Origin: an uncultured archaeon
GTDB taxonomy: Archaea; Asgardarchaeota; Thorarchaeia; Thorarchaeales; Thorarchaeaceae
Assembly (NCBI GenBank): GCA_964558645.1
Contig: CAZLEV010000004.1
Span: 181,569-245,568, forward strand
DNA: 64,000 bases
Reading direction: 5' to 3'
The translations under genes were made by a program, and so were the position numbers. The notes under the pieces are model-generated. The model was not told where the DNA came from and did no database searches. It saw nothing but the letters and a program-made list of their open reading frames with translations. Shown here in pieces: positions 276 through 13,591 of this stretch. The first letter of the stretch is position 1. The number at the start of each line of letters is the position of its first letter.

Positions 276-627
276 CTTCGGACAACTCCAACAATATAGA
301 AAACCTACATATTTCATATAGATATTATCCCTATCGACTGTTCTGGGTGTTACATGACTATTGTCCAGATATTACCCTCATAGTTCATGTTCGTAAGTCG
401 GCCCCTAGAGGCTGTCTGAAGGCATTTTAGCTGTTGTATTTCAGTACAAAGGCTATGATATATATATATGTAAGATAGTTTTTGCATAGAAACGTCGAAA
501 AATCGAGGGAAATCCCGACAATCCTTAAATACGTCAGACCGTAACTTCCTGCCAGCACAGAGTTCTGAATCTTCGGGTGAAGAATCGAAATACTATCTTT
601 GCACAAACAAGTGAGGACCGAAATAAA

Positions 628-1767
628 ATGGCTGAAGACGAGTTCCTAGGAGCTAAGCCCGTAGTCATTGATAATGGCACGGGATTGAGCAAGAACGGGT
701 ACGCCGGGGAAGATCAGCCGAGGAGCGTCTGGCCGACGCTTATTGGTTATCCCCGGTACGAGAGTATCATGACGGACGTAGACCACTACACCAGAGACTA
801 CTACATTGGTGAGGAGGCAATCAACCTCCGAGGTGTCTTACGCCTGGTCTATCCCATCACTCATGGGGTGATTGACGACTGGGATGCAATCGAGAAGATA
901 TGGTCGTACACATTCTACAACGACCTCAAGGTTGACCCCAGTGAGAATCCAGTGCTTCTGACCGAGGCACCATTCAACCCACGAGAGAACAGGGAGCGCA
1001 TGGCAAGCGTCATGTTTGACAACTTTGGAGCGCCAGCAGTATATGTGGCCACTCAGGCAGTGCTGTCACTGTACGCATCTGGTAGAACCACAGGTCTGGT
1101 CATCGACTCTGGCGACGGTGTGACACACATAGTCCCAATCTATGAGGGCTTTGCAATCACTCACGCCATCAGAAGAATCGACCTAGCTGGAAGAGACATT
1201 ACAGAGTACTTGCGCAGGTTGCTCAGGCAGAGGGGTTACTCCTTTGTGAGCGGCGCAGAGAAAGAGATTGTGAGAGACGTAAAGGAGAAACTCTGTTACG
1301 TTGCCCTTGATCCTGAGAAGGAGAGGACCGTGGCAGACAAGGCAGGAGTCGACAAGCCCTACATGCTACCTGATGGCGAAGTCATCACTGTGGGGGCAGA
1401 GAGATTCCAGGGTCCAGAGCTGTTCTTCAATCCAAGCGCCATTGGTCTCGACACCATGCCTCTCGACGAACACATCGTCGAATCAATCAAGGCGTGTGAC
1501 GTTGACTTGCGACGTGACCTGTACGCAAACATTGTACTCTCGGGTGGTTCAACCATGTTCCCAGGCCTGAAGGAGAGGCTCCACAAGGAGATCACCGAAC
1601 TCGTACCTGAGAACATCGAAGTACGAATCATCGCTCCACCTGAGCGCCAATACTCAGTCTGGATTGGAGGCAGCATTCTAGCCAGCCTCAAGACCTTCCA
1701 GAAGATGTGGGTGACTCGCAAGGAGTTTGAGGAAGCGGGACCAGAAGTCATCCATCGCTGTATCTAG
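628..1767 (+). CDS. Asgard (eukaryote-like) actin
   Basis: [78 protein letters not shown]; His73 equivalent in YPITHG; ATG at 628 preceded by GTGAGG SD (track starts at 577). Confidence 0.97.
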
Positions 1768-6342: not shown

Positions 6343-7686
6343 TTGCAAGTGTCTGAGATACCAAAAGACGCACAGATTGCCATATTCTGGGACATCGAGA
6401 ATGTCCATGATGATTTCAGAACGCATGAGAATATGATGAAAGAGTTTCGAGAGACGGGACGAGTGGTTCGTTCATACGCGTTCGCCGATTGGGATAGCAG
6501 AAGAAGGATGGGTGAGCAACTAATGAAGATAGGTTTCGATCTCATCCACGTCCCCAGCGATATGCAAAATGCTAGCGATTTCAAGATGGGGGAGTACATT
6601 GTAGAGCATATGACCCGCTATCCCGATACCAACTGCTATGCGCTCATCACAGGAGATGGGGACTTCCTCGTTCTGACAGGTATACTGAAGTTCCGAGGTT
6701 ACCATATCTGGCTAGTCAGCAATCCGCTATACACTTCGGCTGAACTCTCAGCTCTTGCTGACAGATACAGTGATATGAAGTCGTTCCGCGGTCTTGCCTT
6801 TGAAGAACAAAGACATGTCGAGGAACCAGGCAAGCCTCTGGAGAGCCGAGCTGATAGGCGAGCCAGAGCCGCAGCAAGACTTCAGGAAACAATAAGCAAG
6901 ATTCTGGAGGCCGAGAACAAGCCGGGAATCGGATGGGTCAAACATGTGATGGTATCTTTGAACCCTGATTTTGACGAGAGAGAATTGGGATTCGAAACCT
7001 GGAAGGAATTCGTTGACTGGGCCGAGAAAAAGGGCTATGTGATCCAAGAGGGAGAGATGCCGGGCACGATACTGCGATTACCGCCCACGCCCTCTGTTGA
7101 GTCCTCTCGCTATTCTGATGAAACCAGCAGAGCATTCCAGAAACTAGTCGATATCCTGGAGAACTGCCTGAATCATGGCAAAGACACTAATCTTGTTACA
7201 CTGGGCCAGGAGGTCAAGTCCGAAGGTATTGACTATCACTCGCTCGGATACAGCAGACTGACCGATTTTGTGTCATCAGCAGAGAAGCGTGACTTCGTGA
7301 GAGTTATTCCTACCGAGGAAGAAAGCGGGCCCATAGTCCTGCCGAACTATCGAGTAGAGGATCTCAAACCTTGGTTCAAAGAGAATGTCACTAAGTACTT
7401 CGGCAAGAAGGCCAAAGTCCCTAAGGATATCTTCATCGAGAGGATAGGTCAGCTTCTGCTGGACAGCAGGATAACACTGAAACAGCTAGAGAAGTACCTA
7501 GGAAGCAGGAAGCTTACACGAGAGTACGAGGCTATTCTAGAGGCGAGCGGTGTTCCGTTTCTACCTCCTTATCAGAAATCAATGTTGTATGTGTTTCTCG
7601 GAGAAGGTATGGATTGTGAGGAGGCAATAAAGGAGGTCAATGTCGAGTTGAAGCCTGTGAGCATTGCCCTCAGCTGTCCCGACTAG
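6343..7686 (+). CDS. NYN-domain RNase with two OST-HTH/LOTUS domains (paralog 1)
   Basis: IAIFWDIENV, NASDFKM, LITGDGDF; LOTUS-like PDFDERELGFETWKEFV and IDYHSLGYSRLTDFV. Confidence 0.85.
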   Translation: MQVSEIPKDAQIAIFWDIENVHDDFRTHENMMKEFRETGRVVRSYAFADWDSRRRMGEQLMKIGFDLIHVPSDMQNASDFKMGEYIVEHMTRYPDTNCYALITGDGDFLVLTGILKFRGYHIWLVSNPLYTSAELSALADRYSDMKSFRGLAFEEQRHVEEPGKPLESRADRRARAAARLQETISKILEAENKPGIGWVKHVMVSLNPDFDERELGFETWKEFVDWAEKKGYVIQEGEMPGTILRLPPTPSVESSRYSDETSRAFQKLVDILENCLNHGKDTNLVTLGQEVKSEGIDYHSLGYSRLTDFVSSAEKRDFVRVIPTEEESGPIVLPNYRVEDLKPWFKENVTKYFGKKAKVPKDIFIERIGQLLLDSRITLKQLEKYLGSRKLTREYEAILEASGVPFLPPYQKSMLYVFLGEGMDCEEAIKEVNVELKPVSIALSCPD

Positions 7687-7843
7687 TCGCCATACTGGTT
7701 AAGCGATATGCGGCGATATGATGAGTTTAGAGAGGATGACACTGGTTACATCAGAAGACAAGTTGTTCGGGGCTTGACGTCACATAATCTTGTTCTCTTG
7801 TTCGATGCTCTTATTTCGGACCCATGGTTGCTAACTATGCGGT

Positions 7844-8818
7844 ATGCAACTCACGATTGAACGCGCTCACAACATTGACGAATATCTCGAAGCATGGAGG
7901 CATCAGATACGTGACTACGAGTGGGCACGTGAATCGATTCCATTTCATTATGCCGTCGAAGAAGAGAGGCAAGAGATTCAAGAAGACTTTGAGAAGGAGC
8001 ATCACTGGTTTCTCGTCGCCTATGACAAGACAGGTCGCCCGGTGGGAGTTCTGGGCATGAGACTGAACGGAGAAACCTGTGTGTTGCGAAACTGGGAGCC
8101 TGCCACCCAATCTAATCAAGCTGCGTGTATCGCACATCAGCTCTTGGACACAGGGTTCGAAACGACAAGAAAGGAAGGTGCTGTCATTGCGTTCGCACGG
8201 CTCAAGTACACCTTGCCGCTCAGAAGCAAGGCAGCCAACCTAAAGGAGAGATTGCTTGATTTTGGATTCTCCGAGAAGAGACGGGGAATCACATCAATCT
8301 GCGACCTGAACCACACTCGGTCATTGGAAGGCAAGATGCTGTTTCGTGATAGGGATGCATTCACTCTTGACGAGTTGACGGACATGACGGTGAAATCGTT
8401 TGCCTATGAAGAGGAAGACAGGAGCATCCATGGAGAATATCAGTCGGTCTCAGACCGAGAAGCCAACCGGCGCATCATGGAGCTGATTGAGAAGGGGGTC
8501 TTTGGAAACTCACCACCTGAGCTTTGGCAGATTGCATTGGTTGATGACAGGCCGGCAGGTCTGGTGATCGGTTTCATCCCGGAATCTGAGTATCGCCCTC
8601 CGCATGGCGTAGTTGGACAGCTCTGTGTGCTCCCGGGTTTCCGCAGAAGAGGGGTGGCTACAGCATTGCTGAGGAGAATTCATCAGGAGTTCCAGTCTAA
8701 GGGATGCGAGTATGCGTTTGTGGGAACGCCTCGATCAAATCGAAGAGCGCTCAACCTCTATGAGAGAGAGGAATATCGTAGAAGATTCGGTCAGGATGAG
8801 TTCGAGATGCGTCTATAG
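7844..8818 (+). CDS. Tandem GNAT acetyltransferase
   Basis: C-terminal acetyl-CoA motif LCVLPGFRRRGVATALL and N.RALNLY; N-terminal GNAT domain appears degenerate. Confidence 0.85.
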   Translation: MQLTIERAHNIDEYLEAWRHQIRDYEWARESIPFHYAVEEERQEIQEDFEKEHHWFLVAYDKTGRPVGVLGMRLNGETCVLRNWEPATQSNQAACIAHQLLDTGFETTRKEGAVIAFARLKYTLPLRSKAANLKERLLDFGFSEKRRGITSICDLNHTRSLEGKMLFRDRDAFTLDELTDMTVKSFAYEEEDRSIHGEYQSVSDREANRRIMELIEKGVFGNSPPELWQIALVDDRPAGLVIGFIPESEYRPPHGVVGQLCVLPGFRRRGVATALLRRIHQEFQSKGCEYAFVGTPRSNRRALNLYEREEYRRRFGQDEFEMRL

Positions 8819-8912
8819 AAGAGGGCGTCCTCACAATGTATTCAGTTCCATGTACTGCTCCAATCCCACATCCTGAGCATAATCTTATAGTGACAGATGA
8901 CCCAATTGCAGA

Positions 8913-10262
8913 TTGGCGAACAAGATGTCTGACTCAGAGATGCGACCCGGCCTCACTGTCTTCTGGGATGTCGAGAACGTTCATGATATACTCGACACCC
9001 ACGTGAGAATGACAGAAACTATCCGCAAATCAGGCAGGGTCATCAAGGCCTTTGCATTTGCCGATTGGGACACCAGAAGGCGAATGGCAGAGAACCTCCA
9101 TCAACTGGGCTATGACTTGATCCATATCCCAGATTCCAAAGACAATGCAGCAGATTACAAGATGGCATCATATATCATGGACCATGTTGTCCACTATCCC
9201 GAGACCCAGCAATACGTCATGATCACTGGAGATGGGGACTTCAACCTCATCGCCGGAGCCTTAAGAGAGCGAGGTCTCGGGCTATGGGTGATCAGTAATC
9301 CCATCATCACCTCATCTGCGCTATCGGAGCTAGCGACCAAATACGATGACATCTACTCCTTCAGACCGGTTCACATGGATTGCTCAAGACCCGAGGACTG
9401 TGATGTGACCTCCGGAAAACTCTCCGACTATAGACGGAGAGCAGGTATGTATCTACGAGAAGCAATACAGAAGATCACAGATGCTGGACATAAGCCGGGT
9501 CTCGGCCATGTGAAGCATGTTATGAACTCCCTCAACCCGCAGTTCGATGAGAAGGTACTGGGCTTCTCTACATGGACTGAGTTCATTGAATGGGCAGAGT
9601 CAGAAAAATACGTTGAGAGAACAGGGGAGCCCCCCATTACTGTCTTGGCTATTCCTCCAGATGATATTCCTAGGATGTCTCAGTTGTCGCTCGAACTACA
9701 GAGCGCATTCGACTTGCTCGAAGCCGTCGTGGAGGCTAGGCTGGAAAGAGGAGAACCGACGTCTCTGGCAGAAGTCAACAATGACCTCAAGATGCAAGGA
9801 TTTGAGCATGAGAGTGTAGGCTATATGCGCTTCAATGACCTGGTCTTGTCGGCAGAGAAGCGCGGGAAAATCAGAGTGGTCGCATCAGGTGAAGACACAG
9901 ATGGTATCATGCTCTTTCCACAATGCACAATTGATAGAGTCAAGGAGTGGTTTGAAGAGCATGTCACAGATCTCTTTGGAAAATCTGTCAAGATTCCCAG
10001 GGCGGTCTTTCTGGAGAAGATATCCCAGATGCTACTCGAGAACCGTACAACTCTGAGGCATCTCGAGAAGTATCTGAGAGATAACGATCTGAGGAGGACC
10101 TATCAGGACATTCTCGACGCCAGCGGGGTTCCGTTCCTGCCGCCATATCAGATGAGCATGGCATTTGTAATGCTGGGCAGAGGTAAGAGTGTCGAGGAAA
10201 CTGTAGAGAGTGTCAGCGAGGAGCTTGAACCCCTGGGAATAACTCTGAAGATACCGGAGTAG
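8913..10262 (+). CDS. NYN-domain RNase with two OST-HTH/LOTUS domains (paralog 2)
   Basis: VFWDVENV, NAADYKM, MITGDGDF; PQFDEKVLGFSTWTEFI; shares ASGVPFLPPYQ with 6343..7686. Confidence 0.85.
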   Translation: MANKMSDSEMRPGLTVFWDVENVHDILDTHVRMTETIRKSGRVIKAFAFADWDTRRRMAENLHQLGYDLIHIPDSKDNAADYKMASYIMDHVVHYPETQQYVMITGDGDFNLIAGALRERGLGLWVISNPIITSSALSELATKYDDIYSFRPVHMDCSRPEDCDVTSGKLSDYRRRAGMYLREAIQKITDAGHKPGLGHVKHVMNSLNPQFDEKVLGFSTWTEFIEWAESEKYVERTGEPPITVLAIPPDDIPRMSQLSLELQSAFDLLEAVVEARLERGEPTSLAEVNNDLKMQGFEHESVGYMRFNDLVLSAEKRGKIRVVASGEDTDGIMLFPQCTIDRVKEWFEEHVTDLFGKSVKIPRAVFLEKISQMLLENRTTLRHLEKYLRDNDLRRTYQDILDASGVPFLPPYQMSMAFVMLGRGKSVEETVESVSEELEPLGITLKIPE

Positions 10263-10321: not shown

Positions 10322-11296
10322 ATGACAAGCGATGCAAGGGATGAAACGAAGCAGGATGAAGAAGTAGAGAAGCGTAGGTATATCCCTCATCTTGCTGAGT
10401 TCTACTTCAAGCCCACTCATGATTGGAGCATCGCAGAGGCTAAGAGGCTATACCATTCAGCCGAGAATGACTGCGGCAACATGAGTCTGGACTCTGTTCA
10501 TTTCAAAGACTGTATATCAGGGATGAAAGAGATGCCGAGGGAGTGTGTCGACCTAGTCATCGCGGATCCTCCGTTCGGGATAGATTTTGACGGCAAGAGT
10601 GGGGCATATAATCGAGATGAGAGTCTGGTTGTCAGTGGGTACGAGGAGATTGATGAGGATTACATTGCCTTCAGCGAGTCGTGGATTGGCGAGGCAGCTC
10701 GAATTCTAAACGATAGTGGGTCCATGTATATTTTCAGCGGCTGGAATAATCTCGAATATGTCTTGAGAGGCGCAAGATTGGCGGGGCTACATCTGCTCAA
10801 CCATCTTATCTGGCAGTATCAGTTTGGTGTGTTCACCAAGAGGAGATTCGTTAGCAGTCACTACCACATTCTTCTCTTGGTCAAGAACAAGGACAACTAC
10901 TTCTTCAACAAGCTGGAGAACTATCCCCAAGATGTCTGGAAAATAAAGCGGAGCTATCGTACCGGAAAGTCGAAGAATAGCACAAAACTGCCACTGAGAG
11001 TGGTCCAGAAGTGCATCGACTACTCTTCAGCTCCAGGGGAGATAGTACTGGACCCGTTCGTAGGCAATGGGACCACGGCCGTCGCTGCCAAGGGAGCGCT
11101 ACGACACTTCATTGGCTACGAGATAAACTCCCAACTGGAGAAAATCATTGCATCGAACCTGGCTGCCGTTGAGCCCGGTCAATTCTACATTTCGTACTCT
11201 GATAGACTTCCCTCCATTGAGGAGCTGGCCAAGAAGTATCCGAGAGCCTATCGCGAATATGTGAAGAGGGAAAACCAAGAGAGCGGCGGAGAATAG
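10322..11296 (+). CDS. Beta-class amino (N4-C/N6-A) DNA methyltransferase, no adjacent REase recognised
   Basis: Catalytic DLVIADPPF precedes SAM-binding VLDPFVGNGTT; FIGYEI. Confidence 0.9.
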   Translation: MTSDARDETKQDEEVEKRRYIPHLAEFYFKPTHDWSIAEAKRLYHSAENDCGNMSLDSVHFKDCISGMKEMPRECVDLVIADPPFGIDFDGKSGAYNRDESLVVSGYEEIDEDYIAFSESWIGEAARILNDSGSMYIFSGWNNLEYVLRGARLAGLHLLNHLIWQYQFGVFTKRRFVSSHYHILLLVKNKDNYFFNKLENYPQDVWKIKRSYRTGKSKNSTKLPLRVVQKCIDYSSAPGEIVLDPFVGNGTTAVAAKGALRHFIGYEINSQLEKIIASNLAAVEPGQFYISYSDRLPSIEELAKKYPRAYREYVKRENQESGGE

Positions 11297-11305
11297 ACAG
11301 ATTGA

Positions 11306-12763
11306 ATGAGAGGATTGGTTGCTGTGCCATATGACGAACTCTTCGAAAAGTACGGAGCAGACCGCGATCGGTTAGGCGATGTGGTTTCTCCAAGTGATGT
11401 CTTCACCCGCGAGTATGGCTCGGAGTTAACAGAATGGGAACGTGGCTTGCATCGTGATTTCAGAACACATGAACATGGAAGAAGATACATCCACAGGGGT
11501 TTTGTGCACTATACGCGTTACATGGACCTCATTCTCTTGACTCCTAGCCCTTGGCTTGTAGAAGGCGTCTTCGTCTACCTAACCTCTGATCAAGAACCTC
11601 CAGATGAAGGAGCGTATGTCCAAGTAAGCGGAAAGAGTATAGCCTTGCCCCGACTCCTTCAGAAGGGCAATGACATTGTTCAGGCGTTTACTGCAGAAGA
11701 TATTCAAGAACTGAAAATTGACCTAATAGACCAGATTCGGCCGCCTCTATCTCTTAAGGACATCTCGGAGTTGTTGTTCGAACATGTGGGTATGGCTGAG
11801 GCAAGCAAACGAGTTTTTGCACGGTTGTTCGTATCCAGTCCACCGTTTCAGCAATCCGTCGGAGGGCTAACCACAGGGATTCAAGCGATAGCATCCAAGA
11901 CTCAGGTTCGTCGCCTCCTCTCTTTCACTCGGAGTGTCATACCTCCTACACTCAGAGGGACAAGAGGGAGGCATCATAATGTAAGAGGATTCAGAATCTC
12001 AACTCCTAGGACTTGGAGATTGGATGCTGGAATGGTCAGCTCAACAAATCTCCGAACACTATGCATAGAGAGGCAAGACCCCCGGGGGTTCAGAGAGGTC
12101 TCCGTTGGGACACTGACCGAGAAGAGCACTGCAGTCTTGCCCGACGTTCCTCTTGCCTTGACATCAGAAGACTTCTGGGTCGAAACAAAGAGCTCAAAGC
12201 ATCTTAGACTTCCCATACTGAAGTCTGTCATCACATTCCAGATGATGAACCCGAAGATATCCGTACGTTCGGTTGATGCAGCAACAAAACACGTTCTCGA
12301 ACGGATGGAGAGGGTAAAGGAAAGTTTTGGGCTGGAGGAGAGTGCCTTGGCACGGGGTCACATTCTGGATGCTGATGCATTAGGAAGGCCCCTCAGCACG
12401 ATTAGACTGGCCAGATCTACTGCACGAGCGTCATGGCAAGACAAAGTGAAGGCATCTGACCTTAAGCAGTCATGGAACCAGATTCTCGAACCCGCACTGA
12501 AGGAATTCCTTGAACTGGTAGAACTAGAGTCAAGGGCTAAGGAAGACTGGGGAGAAGGGGCCCGTCTTGAGAAGTTCAACACCAAAGTTCATCGAGCAAT
12601 ACGACAGCTAGATAGCGGGAAGACGGGATCACTTGGGCCAAGTCTCGAAGAGATAGCTGAAGAGGCCGGAGTAGAAGTGCATGTTGCAGCCGAGAACCTA
12701 GAGAGAATGAAGAGAAACGGTGTCGTCTATGAGCCACGAACAGGGCACTACCGCCTGGTATAG
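11306..12763 (+). CDS. Degenerate MCM-like protein (OB + inactive AAA+ + C-terminal winged helix)
   Basis: VYLTSDQEPPDEGAYVQVSG (MCM OB), WRLDAG (MCM WxLEAG), RPLSTIRLARSTAR...V...D (sensor II), GVVYEPRTGHYRLV (MCM C-terminal WH); no Walker A/B. Confidence 0.65.
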   Translation: MRGLVAVPYDELFEKYGADRDRLGDVVSPSDVFTREYGSELTEWERGLHRDFRTHEHGRRYIHRGFVHYTRYMDLILLTPSPWLVEGVFVYLTSDQEPPDEGAYVQVSGKSIALPRLLQKGNDIVQAFTAEDIQELKIDLIDQIRPPLSLKDISELLFEHVGMAEASKRVFARLFVSSPPFQQSVGGLTTGIQAIASKTQVRRLLSFTRSVIPPTLRGTRGRHHNVRGFRISTPRTWRLDAGMVSSTNLRTLCIERQDPRGFREVSVGTLTEKSTAVLPDVPLALTSEDFWVETKSSKHLRLPILKSVITFQMMNPKISVRSVDAATKHVLERMERVKESFGLEESALARGHILDADALGRPLSTIRLARSTARASWQDKVKASDLKQSWNQILEPALKEFLELVELESRAKEDWGEGARLEKFNTKVHRAIRQLDSGKTGSLGPSLEEIAEEAGVEVHVAAENLERMKRNGVVYEPRTGHYRLV

Positions 12764-12784: not shown

Positions 12785-13591
12785 TTGCCAGAACTGCCTG
12801 AGCTCGAAGCCATTGCGATGAAACTGTGGGAAAGGTTCAACGGTAAGGAGGTCGAATCAGTTCGGGTGTATGAGGCTCTTGTCATTCATGCCATCACACC
12901 AGATGATTTCGTCGAAAGAATAACCAATTCGGTCTTGTCTTCCTGTGTCGCCGATGGCAAGTTCATAATCCTCAGTCTCACTGGAAACAAGAAGATTGTA
13001 GTCAATCCGATGCTGGCAGGAAGATTCAGAATCGTACAGAGAGGGCGAAGATCTCTGAAGAGAAACATCTTCGCTCTTGAATTCGGGAGCGAGAGTCTTC
13101 TGTACACTGATACTAAGAGAATGAGCAGAGTCTATCTGGTTCTTGACGACGATTTCACCGTTGTCAAGGGTTTCGCGGGACGGGGACCACAAGCGCTTGG
13201 ACACGATCTTACGGAACATGCATTCCTAGACAGAATCAAGAGGTTCAGAGGACATATCAAGAATGTTCTGACGAACCAACGATTCATCACAGGCATTGGC
13301 AACGCATATGCAGACGAGGTCCTTCTCTACGCAGGAATCATGCCGTTCAGAAGAAGAGCAAGTCTGAGTACCAACGAGATTGTCAGCCTTTACAGGGCGA
13401 TGAGAGACGTCTTGTCGCGCTATCGGGACATGATGATGAAGAGGAATCTGTCGGAACTAGCCACGGAGAAACGAGACTTCCTGATGATTCATGGAAGAGG
13501 AGGGGAAAAGTGTCCGCTCTGTGGGGGGAGAATATCAGAAGTAACAGCCAATCGCTTCAAGACGAACTACTGTCAGACCTGCCAGAAATGA
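12785..13591 (+). CDS. mutM: Fpg/Nei family DNA glycosylase/AP lyase
   Basis: N-terminal PELPE, H2TH motif NQRFITGIGNAYADE, Zn finger CPLC...CQTC; TTG start. Confidence 0.93.
   Translation: MPELPELEAIAMKLWERFNGKEVESVRVYEALVIHAITPDDFVERITNSVLSSCVADGKFIILSLTGNKKIVVNPMLAGRFRIVQRGRRSLKRNIFALEFGSESLLYTDTKRMSRVYLVLDDDFTVVKGFAGRGPQALGHDLTEHAFLDRIKRFRGHIKNVLTNQRFITGIGNAYADEVLLYAGIMPFRRRASLSTNEIVSLYRAMRDVLSRYRDMMMKRNLSELATEKRDFLMIHGRGGEKCPLCGGRISEVTANRFKTNYCQTCQK

Follow-up and report, generated by a model that had tools for sequence, protein, structure and literature searches.

A Thorarchaeota protein family with the domain order of MCM and no ATPase site: predicted fold, distribution and putative role

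Inactive MCM relatives and the Thorarchaeota gene

Inactive relatives of the replicative helicase MCM are already known. The MCM2 protein of Methanopyrus kandleri is described as inactive, being devoid of a conserved Walker A motif and carrying natural internal deletions (PMC2933578), and MCMBP possesses an MCM-like domain without Walker A and promotes the assembly of MCM2-7 (PMC9018068). A recent survey of the Asgard replication machinery took MCM to be mostly single-copy (PMC12680538). Here, we present a computational analysis of a gene situated in a 64,000-nucleotide stretch of DNA from an uncultured archaeon of the GTDB family Thorarchaeaceae (Asgardarchaeota; assembly GCA_964558645.1, contig CAZLEV010000004.1, positions 181,569 to 245,568 of the forward strand), the whole of which is hereafter termed the window. 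The gene, termed pseudo-MCM, very probably encodes an MCM-derived pseudo-ATPase. A first-pass annotation of the window had taken it for an ATPase-dead MCM paralog, a central reading that structure prediction, two fold searches and profile comparison all support.

Canonical archaeal MCM (8x7t; S. solfataricus 4fdg and 6mii; P. furiosus 4r7z; PF17207, PF00493, PF17855 and PF21120) follows the same order of domains, yields the best fold matches (Z 16–19) and exhibits significant profile similarity over the lid and winged helix, whereas pseudo-MCM is ~200 residues shorter, has its core reduced to roughly 110 residues and is devoid of the A subdomain, the zinc finger, Walker A, Walker B and the SRFD motif. 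The short archaeal MCM fold of M. kandleri MCM2 (3f8t) matches pseudo-MCM with Z 16.3 (root-mean-square deviation, rmsd, 6.7; 302 residues aligned; 15% identity), and no sequence link between it and the family profile was obtained at E up to 10; unlike M. kandleri MCM2, pseudo-MCM retains an MCM-type winged helix. MCM-BP (MCM_bind, PF09739) and MCMDC2 share with it the logic of an MCM-like domain without Walker A that stands beside an active helicase. A specific kinship with these two proteins, of which the annotation had found it reminiscent, does not appear: no MCM_bind match was obtained for pseudo-MCM at E up to 1, the language-model score of 0.84 with an MCM_bind cluster lies below the level of evidence and serves as a lead only, and the protein is archaeal and much shorter. 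The likeness remains an analogy, with no evidence of orthology. No Pfam or NCBIfam model represents the pseudo-MCM family, and no description of an inactive Asgard or Thorarchaeota MCM paralog was found in the literature, the coverage of which was incomplete, so that novelty is not proven by this absence.

Predicted fold, homology and loss of the ATPase site

The structure of pseudo-MCM was predicted with AlphaFold2 from an alignment of 84 family sequences that included distant relatives, with a predicted local distance difference test score (pLDDT) of 90.9 and a predicted template modelling score (pTM) of 0.87. With 28 close orthologs only, residues 153–405 were modelled poorly (pLDDT 48), which inclusion of the distant relatives remedied. 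The model comprises a barrel of five to six strands (53–135), two helices and a small alpha/beta core (189–285), followed in the C-terminal half by a helical lid (298–375), a long helix (383–415) and a winged helix (426–485), the last of which shows the strongest conservation and the highest modelling confidence in the protein. The barrel is the counterpart of the MCM N-terminal subdomain C and directly precedes the AAA+ module, in a stretch devoid of cysteine or a zinc finger.

Searched against the PDB with Foldseek, the 50 best matches listed were all MCM chains (E 6.5e-14 to 1.4e-10; 408–588 alignment columns), and in VIA-align, which was run independently of Foldseek on 48,161 representatives, the first 11 were MCMs (Z 13.2–16.8; model residues 41–407). 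VIA-align on the Foldseek list gave Z up to 19.4, and some of these alignments reach residue 485 and thereby take in the winged helix. In these fold searches ~290–360 residues were aligned to MCM, from the OB fold through the AAA+ core and lid into the winged helix, the matches beginning at model residues 49–58, in the OB region of the MCM chains. The isolated MCM ATPase tier 8q6p_7 was matched with Z 18.1 (rmsd 3.9 Å; 224 of 298 residues aligned) and 4r7z_A with Z 16.8. The OB and AAA+ fold with an MCM lid is accordingly present in the model, MCM chains rank first in both fold searches, and the similarity extends beyond the winged helix, to which it might have been confined, into OB fold, core and lid. 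After the MCMs, the AAA+ core and lid fold shared with the RavA (Z 11.6), MoxR-like (10.3), BchI (9.3) and ComM (7.5) proteins of the helix-2-insert clade and with BrxL (8.5) was detected, but these score clearly below MCM, have no OB plus MCM winged-helix architecture and gave no sequence matches. Within the individual domains, VIA-align matched the PriB OB domain to residues 57–138 (Z 7.3) and many winged-helix structures to the C-terminal domain (Z 7–9).

At the level of sequence, pseudo-MCM had no match above threshold in Pfam, NCBIfam or PADLOC. No match to PF00493 was obtained at E up to 1, the score against NCBIfam NF040949 was 13.3 bits as compared to a cut-off of 940, and the sub-threshold Pfam matches were winged-helix families including MCM_WH_arc and DUF5817_CT. 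A single-sequence search of the PDB matched one entry, MCM 8x7t (E 0.0047), placing residues 332–485 on MCM 523–682. When a profile of 28 orthologs was searched against 1.84 billion cluster representatives, 72 proteins were retrieved, among them ~45 full-length relatives of 430–500 residues with roughly 20% identity and one canonical 687-aa MCM that was matched over its last 120 residues; repeat searches with a mixed or distant-only alignment added almost no new members. The distant relatives (~20% identity) are labelled Odinarchaeota, Methanomethylicaceae and Thaumarchaeota/Nitrososphaerota, and one of them (P0132) has a Pfam MCM_lid match below threshold.

Profile comparison by hhalign of the family alignments with 17 Asgard MCMs returned probabilities of 95–97% (E 2e-8 to 4e-10) over a span from about residue 314 to the C-terminus (485), which covers the lid and sensor-2 helix of MCM together with its linker and winged helix. 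Local profile alignment of the first 300 residues (OB fold and AAA+ core) with MCM gave nothing significant, with probabilities below 1%. The 84-sequence family profile matched, in the PDB, the MCM 8x7t (1.5e-9) and SsoMCM (9.4e-9), and also Mcm7, MCM8 and the RPA32 winged helix; in 400 Asgard genomes, it matched the C-terminal 110 residues of canonical ~690-aa MCM open reading frames (E 1e-7 to 3e-10). For the winged helix, the family profile gave 2.9e-7 with PDB 2m45, the SsoMCM winged helix, and 6.8e-6 with that of RPA32. By language-model features (ESM Atlas and language-model searches), the nearest named clusters are MCM families. With the profile-profile probability and the two fold searches taken together, the likeness of pseudo-MCM to MCM is far beyond chance.

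The prominence of the winged helix invites another explanation, in which the protein is a stand-alone DNA-binding regulator or chromatin protein that acts through this domain, with the MCM-like body as an oligomerisation scaffold unrelated to replication. The superior conservation and modelling confidence of the domain and its resemblance to transcription-factor winged helices (the Z 7–9 matches above) speak for such a view. Its sequence is, however, specifically of the MCM/RPA32 replication type, and the entire 480-aa architecture is conserved rather than the winged helix alone, which makes this explanation very unlikely.

The closest clusters of all, by features as well as by shape, were three unnamed archaeal ones (412–511 aa; 81–464 members; mostly labelled Methanobacteriota), with a feature similarity of 0.96–0.97 and a template modelling (TM) shape score of 0.45–0.55, which HMMER did not reach. 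Archaea may harbour short, as yet unnamed MCM-like proteins much more widely.

The strings quoted in the annotation, namely VYLTSDQEPPDEGAYVQVSG, HVGMAEASKRVFARLF, IQAIASKT, WRLDAG, ILKSVITFQMMNPKIS, RPLSTIRLARSTAR and GVVYEPRTGHYRLV, are all present in the translation in this order, and the equivalence of the OB strand, the "AAA+ entry" and WRLDAG to MCM motifs is derived from the fold and from a forced global profile alignment of low per-column confidence. In the same type of alignment, VGMAEASKRVFARLF is set, with low confidence, on the MCM segment I.G.E.IK.AI.L.LF, and hairpin 229–242, which holds WRLDAG, appears collinear with the helix-2 insert (h2i) region of MCM. Between the later strands of the model there appears to be too little sequence for a pre-sensor 1 (PS1) hairpin.

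The cis-acting ATPase elements of MCM are missing throughout the family. The Walker A position had been read as IQAIASKT in place of GDPGxxKS, and no G-x4-GK[ST] pattern occurs in the core of any of the 84 family members; a single member carries it elsewhere in the protein, within the OB domain. In the model, the strand 189–194 and the helix 198–211 are joined by only 3–4 residues where MCM has an 8-residue P-loop, and the position of K198 is occupied among orthologs by K, Q, R, E or M. The further absences claimed by the annotation (Walker B, SRF, zinc finger and most of the A domain) were equally borne out, in this protein as in the 84 relatives. With regard to Walker B, no conserved D-E pair is present in residues 236–272, the collinear relic being LC(I/V)xRxD. 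No SRF arginine finger was detected, and the global alignment puts (P/S)279-D280-x-P282 at the MCM SRFD, with no arginine and an invariant D280. Zinc subdomain B (CxxC...CxxC) is absent, any CxxC being present in 2 of the 84 relatives and a single cysteine in the whole pseudo-MCM translation. Helical subdomain A is likewise absent, its place being occupied by an N-terminal extension with two short helices, which leaves only ~45 poorly ordered residues before the OB fold.

Other positions are retained. S177, P179, G186-G187, E264, S/T266, D280, P282, P316, G360 and P362 are conserved family-wide; R/K361 aligns with the trans-acting sensor-2 arginine, and R374 is kept in 83 of 84 sequences, the remaining row being gapped. 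Because both the absences and the conserved residues are common to the whole family, the loss of motifs is ancient and family-wide and not a product of recent decay. A PD-(D/E)xK nuclease reading of P279-D280...E293-x-K295 was also considered and rejected, as the lysine varies among orthologs and the glutamate among distant relatives.

With reference to Table 1, the reading frame of pseudo-MCM is open and real. An alternative GTG start at 11324, which is that of the public gene call, follows a GAGAGGA stretch and yields a protein of 479 aa, as long as most orthologs, whereas ATG 11306 lies 9 nucleotides past the stop of the upstream methyltransferase gene; judged from the sequence, the start codon is ambiguous between the two.

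Table 1. Coordinates of pseudo-MCM, its domains and its immediate neighbours in the window
Feature	Position	Strand	Basis
Pseudo-MCM gene	11306..12763	+	Open reading frame list and translation; 485 aa from ATG 11306
Short N-terminal extension, residues 1–45	11306..11440	+	Low-confidence helices, pLDDT 53–87; no helical bundle
OB-fold barrel, residues ~50–137	11453..11716	+	Strands 53–135, pLDDT 85–96
Pre-core helices, residues 139–176	11720..11833	+	Helices 150–157 and 165–176; collinear with the MCM segment before the P-loop
Degenerate AAA+ alpha/beta core, residues 177–296	11834..12193	+	MCM ATPase-tier fold matches; 84-sequence column statistics
MCM-type AAA lid, residues 298–381	12197..12448	+	hhalign 95–97%; sensor-2 helix with R/K361 and R374
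Long linker helix between lid and winged helix, residues 383–415	12452..12550	+	Model, pLDDT 84–98
C-terminal winged helix, archaeal MCM type, residues 420–485	12563..12760	+	Wing G.(V/L)YEPR.GHYRLV conserved
Beta-class N6/N4 DNA methyltransferase, DPPF motif	10322..11296	+	PF01555 1.3e-37; stop 9 nucleotides before ATG 11306
Fpg/Nei DNA glycosylase, same syntenic block	12785..13591	+	Pfam Fapy_DNA_glyco, H2TH, zf-FPG

Distribution, gene neighbourhood and alternative explanations

The public protein collection contains ~220 orthologs of pseudo-MCM (473–512 residues; 55–82% identity), all annotated as "hypothetical" and, wherever a name is given, labelled Thorarchaeota. Searches with the family profile detected it in all 85 genomes (85 of 85) of the GTDB family to which the window belongs, mostly full-length and in some cases split at contig ends, and the genome of the window itself also harbours one intact canonical MCM. 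Among the 400 Asgard genomes, it further occurs in 3 of 3 genomes of one other family and in single genomes elsewhere. In the phylogenetic tree, the Thorarchaeota sequences form one clade with a Shimodaira–Hasegawa-like approximate likelihood ratio test (SH-aLRT) value of 99, and orthologs from different genera are 55–62% identical; the gene is under purifying selection and vertically inherited in a whole archaeal family. The sequencing runs listed as containing the stretch were DNA metagenomes, with no RNA run among them.

Outside Thorarchaeota the distribution is patchy (in two genera, the gene occurs in 1 of 12 and in 1 of 5 genomes), and the other relatives in the tree fall into deep, long-branched groups with mixed taxon labels. 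Both observations are in favour of a domesticated mobile-element protein, that is, a helicase-derived replication or partition regulator of a plasmid or integrated element, one copy of which became fixed in the Thorarchaeota ancestor. Mobile-element hallmarks were also present in 4 of the 10 distant-relative loci (L069, L082, L078 and L068), comprising an IS110 transposase with a TrwB/DUF87 ATPase, ParB with an Exo5-like gene, ParA with PIN and toxin-antitoxin clusters. The other distant relatives sit among ordinary metabolic genes, and no virus or plasmid record was identified for the family, owing to which we regard this scenario as improbable. It concerns the origin of the gene and is compatible with the preferred explanation of its present role in Thorarchaeota, an inert MCM descendant with a structural or regulatory function.

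No neighbour is shared across the ten loci of distant relatives. In one of them, on a Methanomethylicaceae contig (L071, 5740–8788), the relative lies close to an Orc1/Cdc6 gene (~550 bp) and to a Cren7 gene (~800 bp); this single case is possibly an origin region. Two further members, on short contigs of two Asgard genome bins (L003 in G306 and L004 in G088), group with a Methanomethylicaceae-labelled clade while their congeners are without the gene, and may represent gene transfer or binning contamination.

The immediate upstream neighbour of pseudo-MCM is a DNA methyltransferase whose closest solved relatives are CcrM, M.MboIIA, DpnA and M.RsrI. Its stop codon lies close to the pseudo-MCM start, of 27 Thorarchaeota loci that were fetched, 22 have it directly upstream (~60% identity), and among the 78 family genomes that could be assessed ~66 carry it adjacent to pseudo-MCM or no more than 1.4 kb away. 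Pseudo-MCM could on these grounds be the DNA-binding or targeting partner of the methyltransferase in an epigenetic module, for instance one that couples adenine methylation to replication. In 12 genomes of six genera, however, the methyltransferase is missing from the locus, with only a paralog on another contig, and the five of these loci that were fetched retain the order NYN or actin, pseudo-MCM, small gene, Fpg (3 of 5), M20 peptidase and luciferase-like oxidoreductase. Since six genera lost the methyltransferase and yet kept pseudo-MCM together with the surrounding synteny, it is dispensable to the locus and probably not an obligate partner. Close homologs of the enzyme (E 1e-120 to 1e-149) are moreover present in many Asgard families devoid of pseudo-MCM, as in 29 of 31 genomes of one such family (f8), and the pairing is seen in none of the ten distant-relative loci. 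As both genes belong to a core block that is conserved in general and rearranges slowly, their adjacency is weak evidence of partnership, and a dedicated methyltransferase module appears unlikely. Judged by its sequence relatives, the enzyme behaves like a widespread orphan methyltransferase of the housekeeping type rather than one of a restriction-modification system. A second paralog was observed on another contig in several Thorarchaeota genomes.

The type II-like character of the adjoining methyltransferase and the presence of BrxL among the fold matches (Z 8.5) could also hint at a restriction or defence component, either a restriction-modification endonuclease or a BrxL-like factor of a BREX system. 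Against it, pseudo-MCM has no PADLOC match and no conserved nuclease motif in the 84 sequences, its BrxL score is far below the Z 17–19 of MCM, and the gene is universal, vertically inherited and located in a syntenic core block and not in an island. No other BREX genes are nearby, the neighbours being NYN-LOTUS, GNAT, Fpg and M20 genes. On the evidence of PADLOC, nuclease motif, synteny and BrxL score, this candidate was rejected, being of negligible probability as compared with an MCM-derived factor.

The Fpg/Nei glycosylase gene is found downstream of pseudo-MCM in many Thorarchaeota loci, including some without the methyltransferase. Upstream, at window positions 6343–10262, a gene for a double-GNAT acetyltransferase is bracketed by two paralogs of 447 and 449 aa that each combine NYN with OST-HTH/LOTUS, and one NYN-LOTUS gene is syntenic upstream of pseudo-MCM in other genera too. 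An actin gene at window positions 577–1767 (Pfam Actin, 9.9e-132) has a counterpart directly upstream of pseudo-MCM in two other genera.

Proposed role and related observations

Overall, the best explanation is that pseudo-MCM is an inert, vertically inherited descendant of MCM that acts as a structural or regulatory factor, a view we hold with moderate confidence; it probably serves DNA replication or genome maintenance in a non-enzymatic way. The protein has kept the MCM chain of domains, from the OB fold through a shrunken AAA+ core and a lid with the sensor-2 helix to the linker helix and the archaeal winged helix, and has lost the A and zinc subdomains together with all cis-acting ATPase residues. 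Because the P-loop is missing, there is a strong case from the sequence that the protein is unable to bind or hydrolyse ATP in the manner of MCM and should not be a motor.

In MCM, the OB domain drives ring assembly and DNA contact, while the winged helix provides DNA and initiator contacts, and the recruitment of MCM by Orc1-1 depends on this winged helix. Pseudo-MCM would act through the corresponding surfaces it has retained, its OB domain and MCM-type winged helix, and could thereby bind to DNA, to canonical MCM or to the initiator Orc1/Cdc6, in keeping with how MCM-BP or MCMDC2 operate beside eukaryotic MCM2-7. Since MCM-BP works in this way and Orc1-1 recruits MCM in dependence on the winged helix, pseudo-MCM would, by analogy, most plausibly assist or regulate the replicative helicase or the loader of the helicase. 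Archaeal Orc1-1 alone is stated to suffice for MCM recruitment (PMC12141716). Taken by itself, an association with MCM or the initiator is a tentative proposal. A full archaeal counterpart of MCM-BP, in which the dead paralog would bind MCM or Orc1/Cdc6 via its OB fold and winged helix and control helicase assembly or licensing, is doubtful; such a counterpart may trace back to the replication module of a mobile element, and an inert MCM partner would then predate eukaryotes, in Asgard and TACK archaea.

Several findings weigh against an MCM-derived replication factor. Significant sequence homology is confined to the C-terminal ~170 residues, the OB fold and core being assigned from predicted structure, and the 84 sequences do not appear to conserve the basic residues with which the hairpins of MCM bind DNA. 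The genomic context is silent on replication, as the Thorarchaeota block holds an unrelated M20 peptidase, luciferase-like oxidoreductase and actin, and only 1 of the 10 distant-relative loci adjoins an Orc1/Cdc6 gene.

Asgard archaea are the closest known relatives of eukaryotes, and an entire Thorarchaeota family is here found to carry a second, very probably MCM-derived protein without an ATPase site, with related forms scattered in Asgard and TACK archaea. If pseudo-MCM does bind MCM or the initiator, it would set a precedent in prokaryotes for non-catalytic MCM partners of the MCM-BP and MCMDC2 kind and would bear on the origin of mixed rings of active and inactive subunits. Whatever its role, it would represent a motor protein turned scaffold and retained by selection, and a structural assignment would be gained for ~220 "hypothetical proteins".

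Two observations were made on related ATPase genes. Many canonical Asgard MCM genes (e.g. L052–L061) lie in frames of 1000–2300 aa in which the P-loop domain is matched in two or three separated pieces, a pattern that would be expected of intein insertions. In the genome of the window, a 330-aa frame on contig 2 (G000, 366279–366641; L002) has a weak PF00493 match (5.4e-6, positions 52–175 of 224) and probably encodes a further AAA+ ATPase of the helix-2-insert clade, not an MCM.

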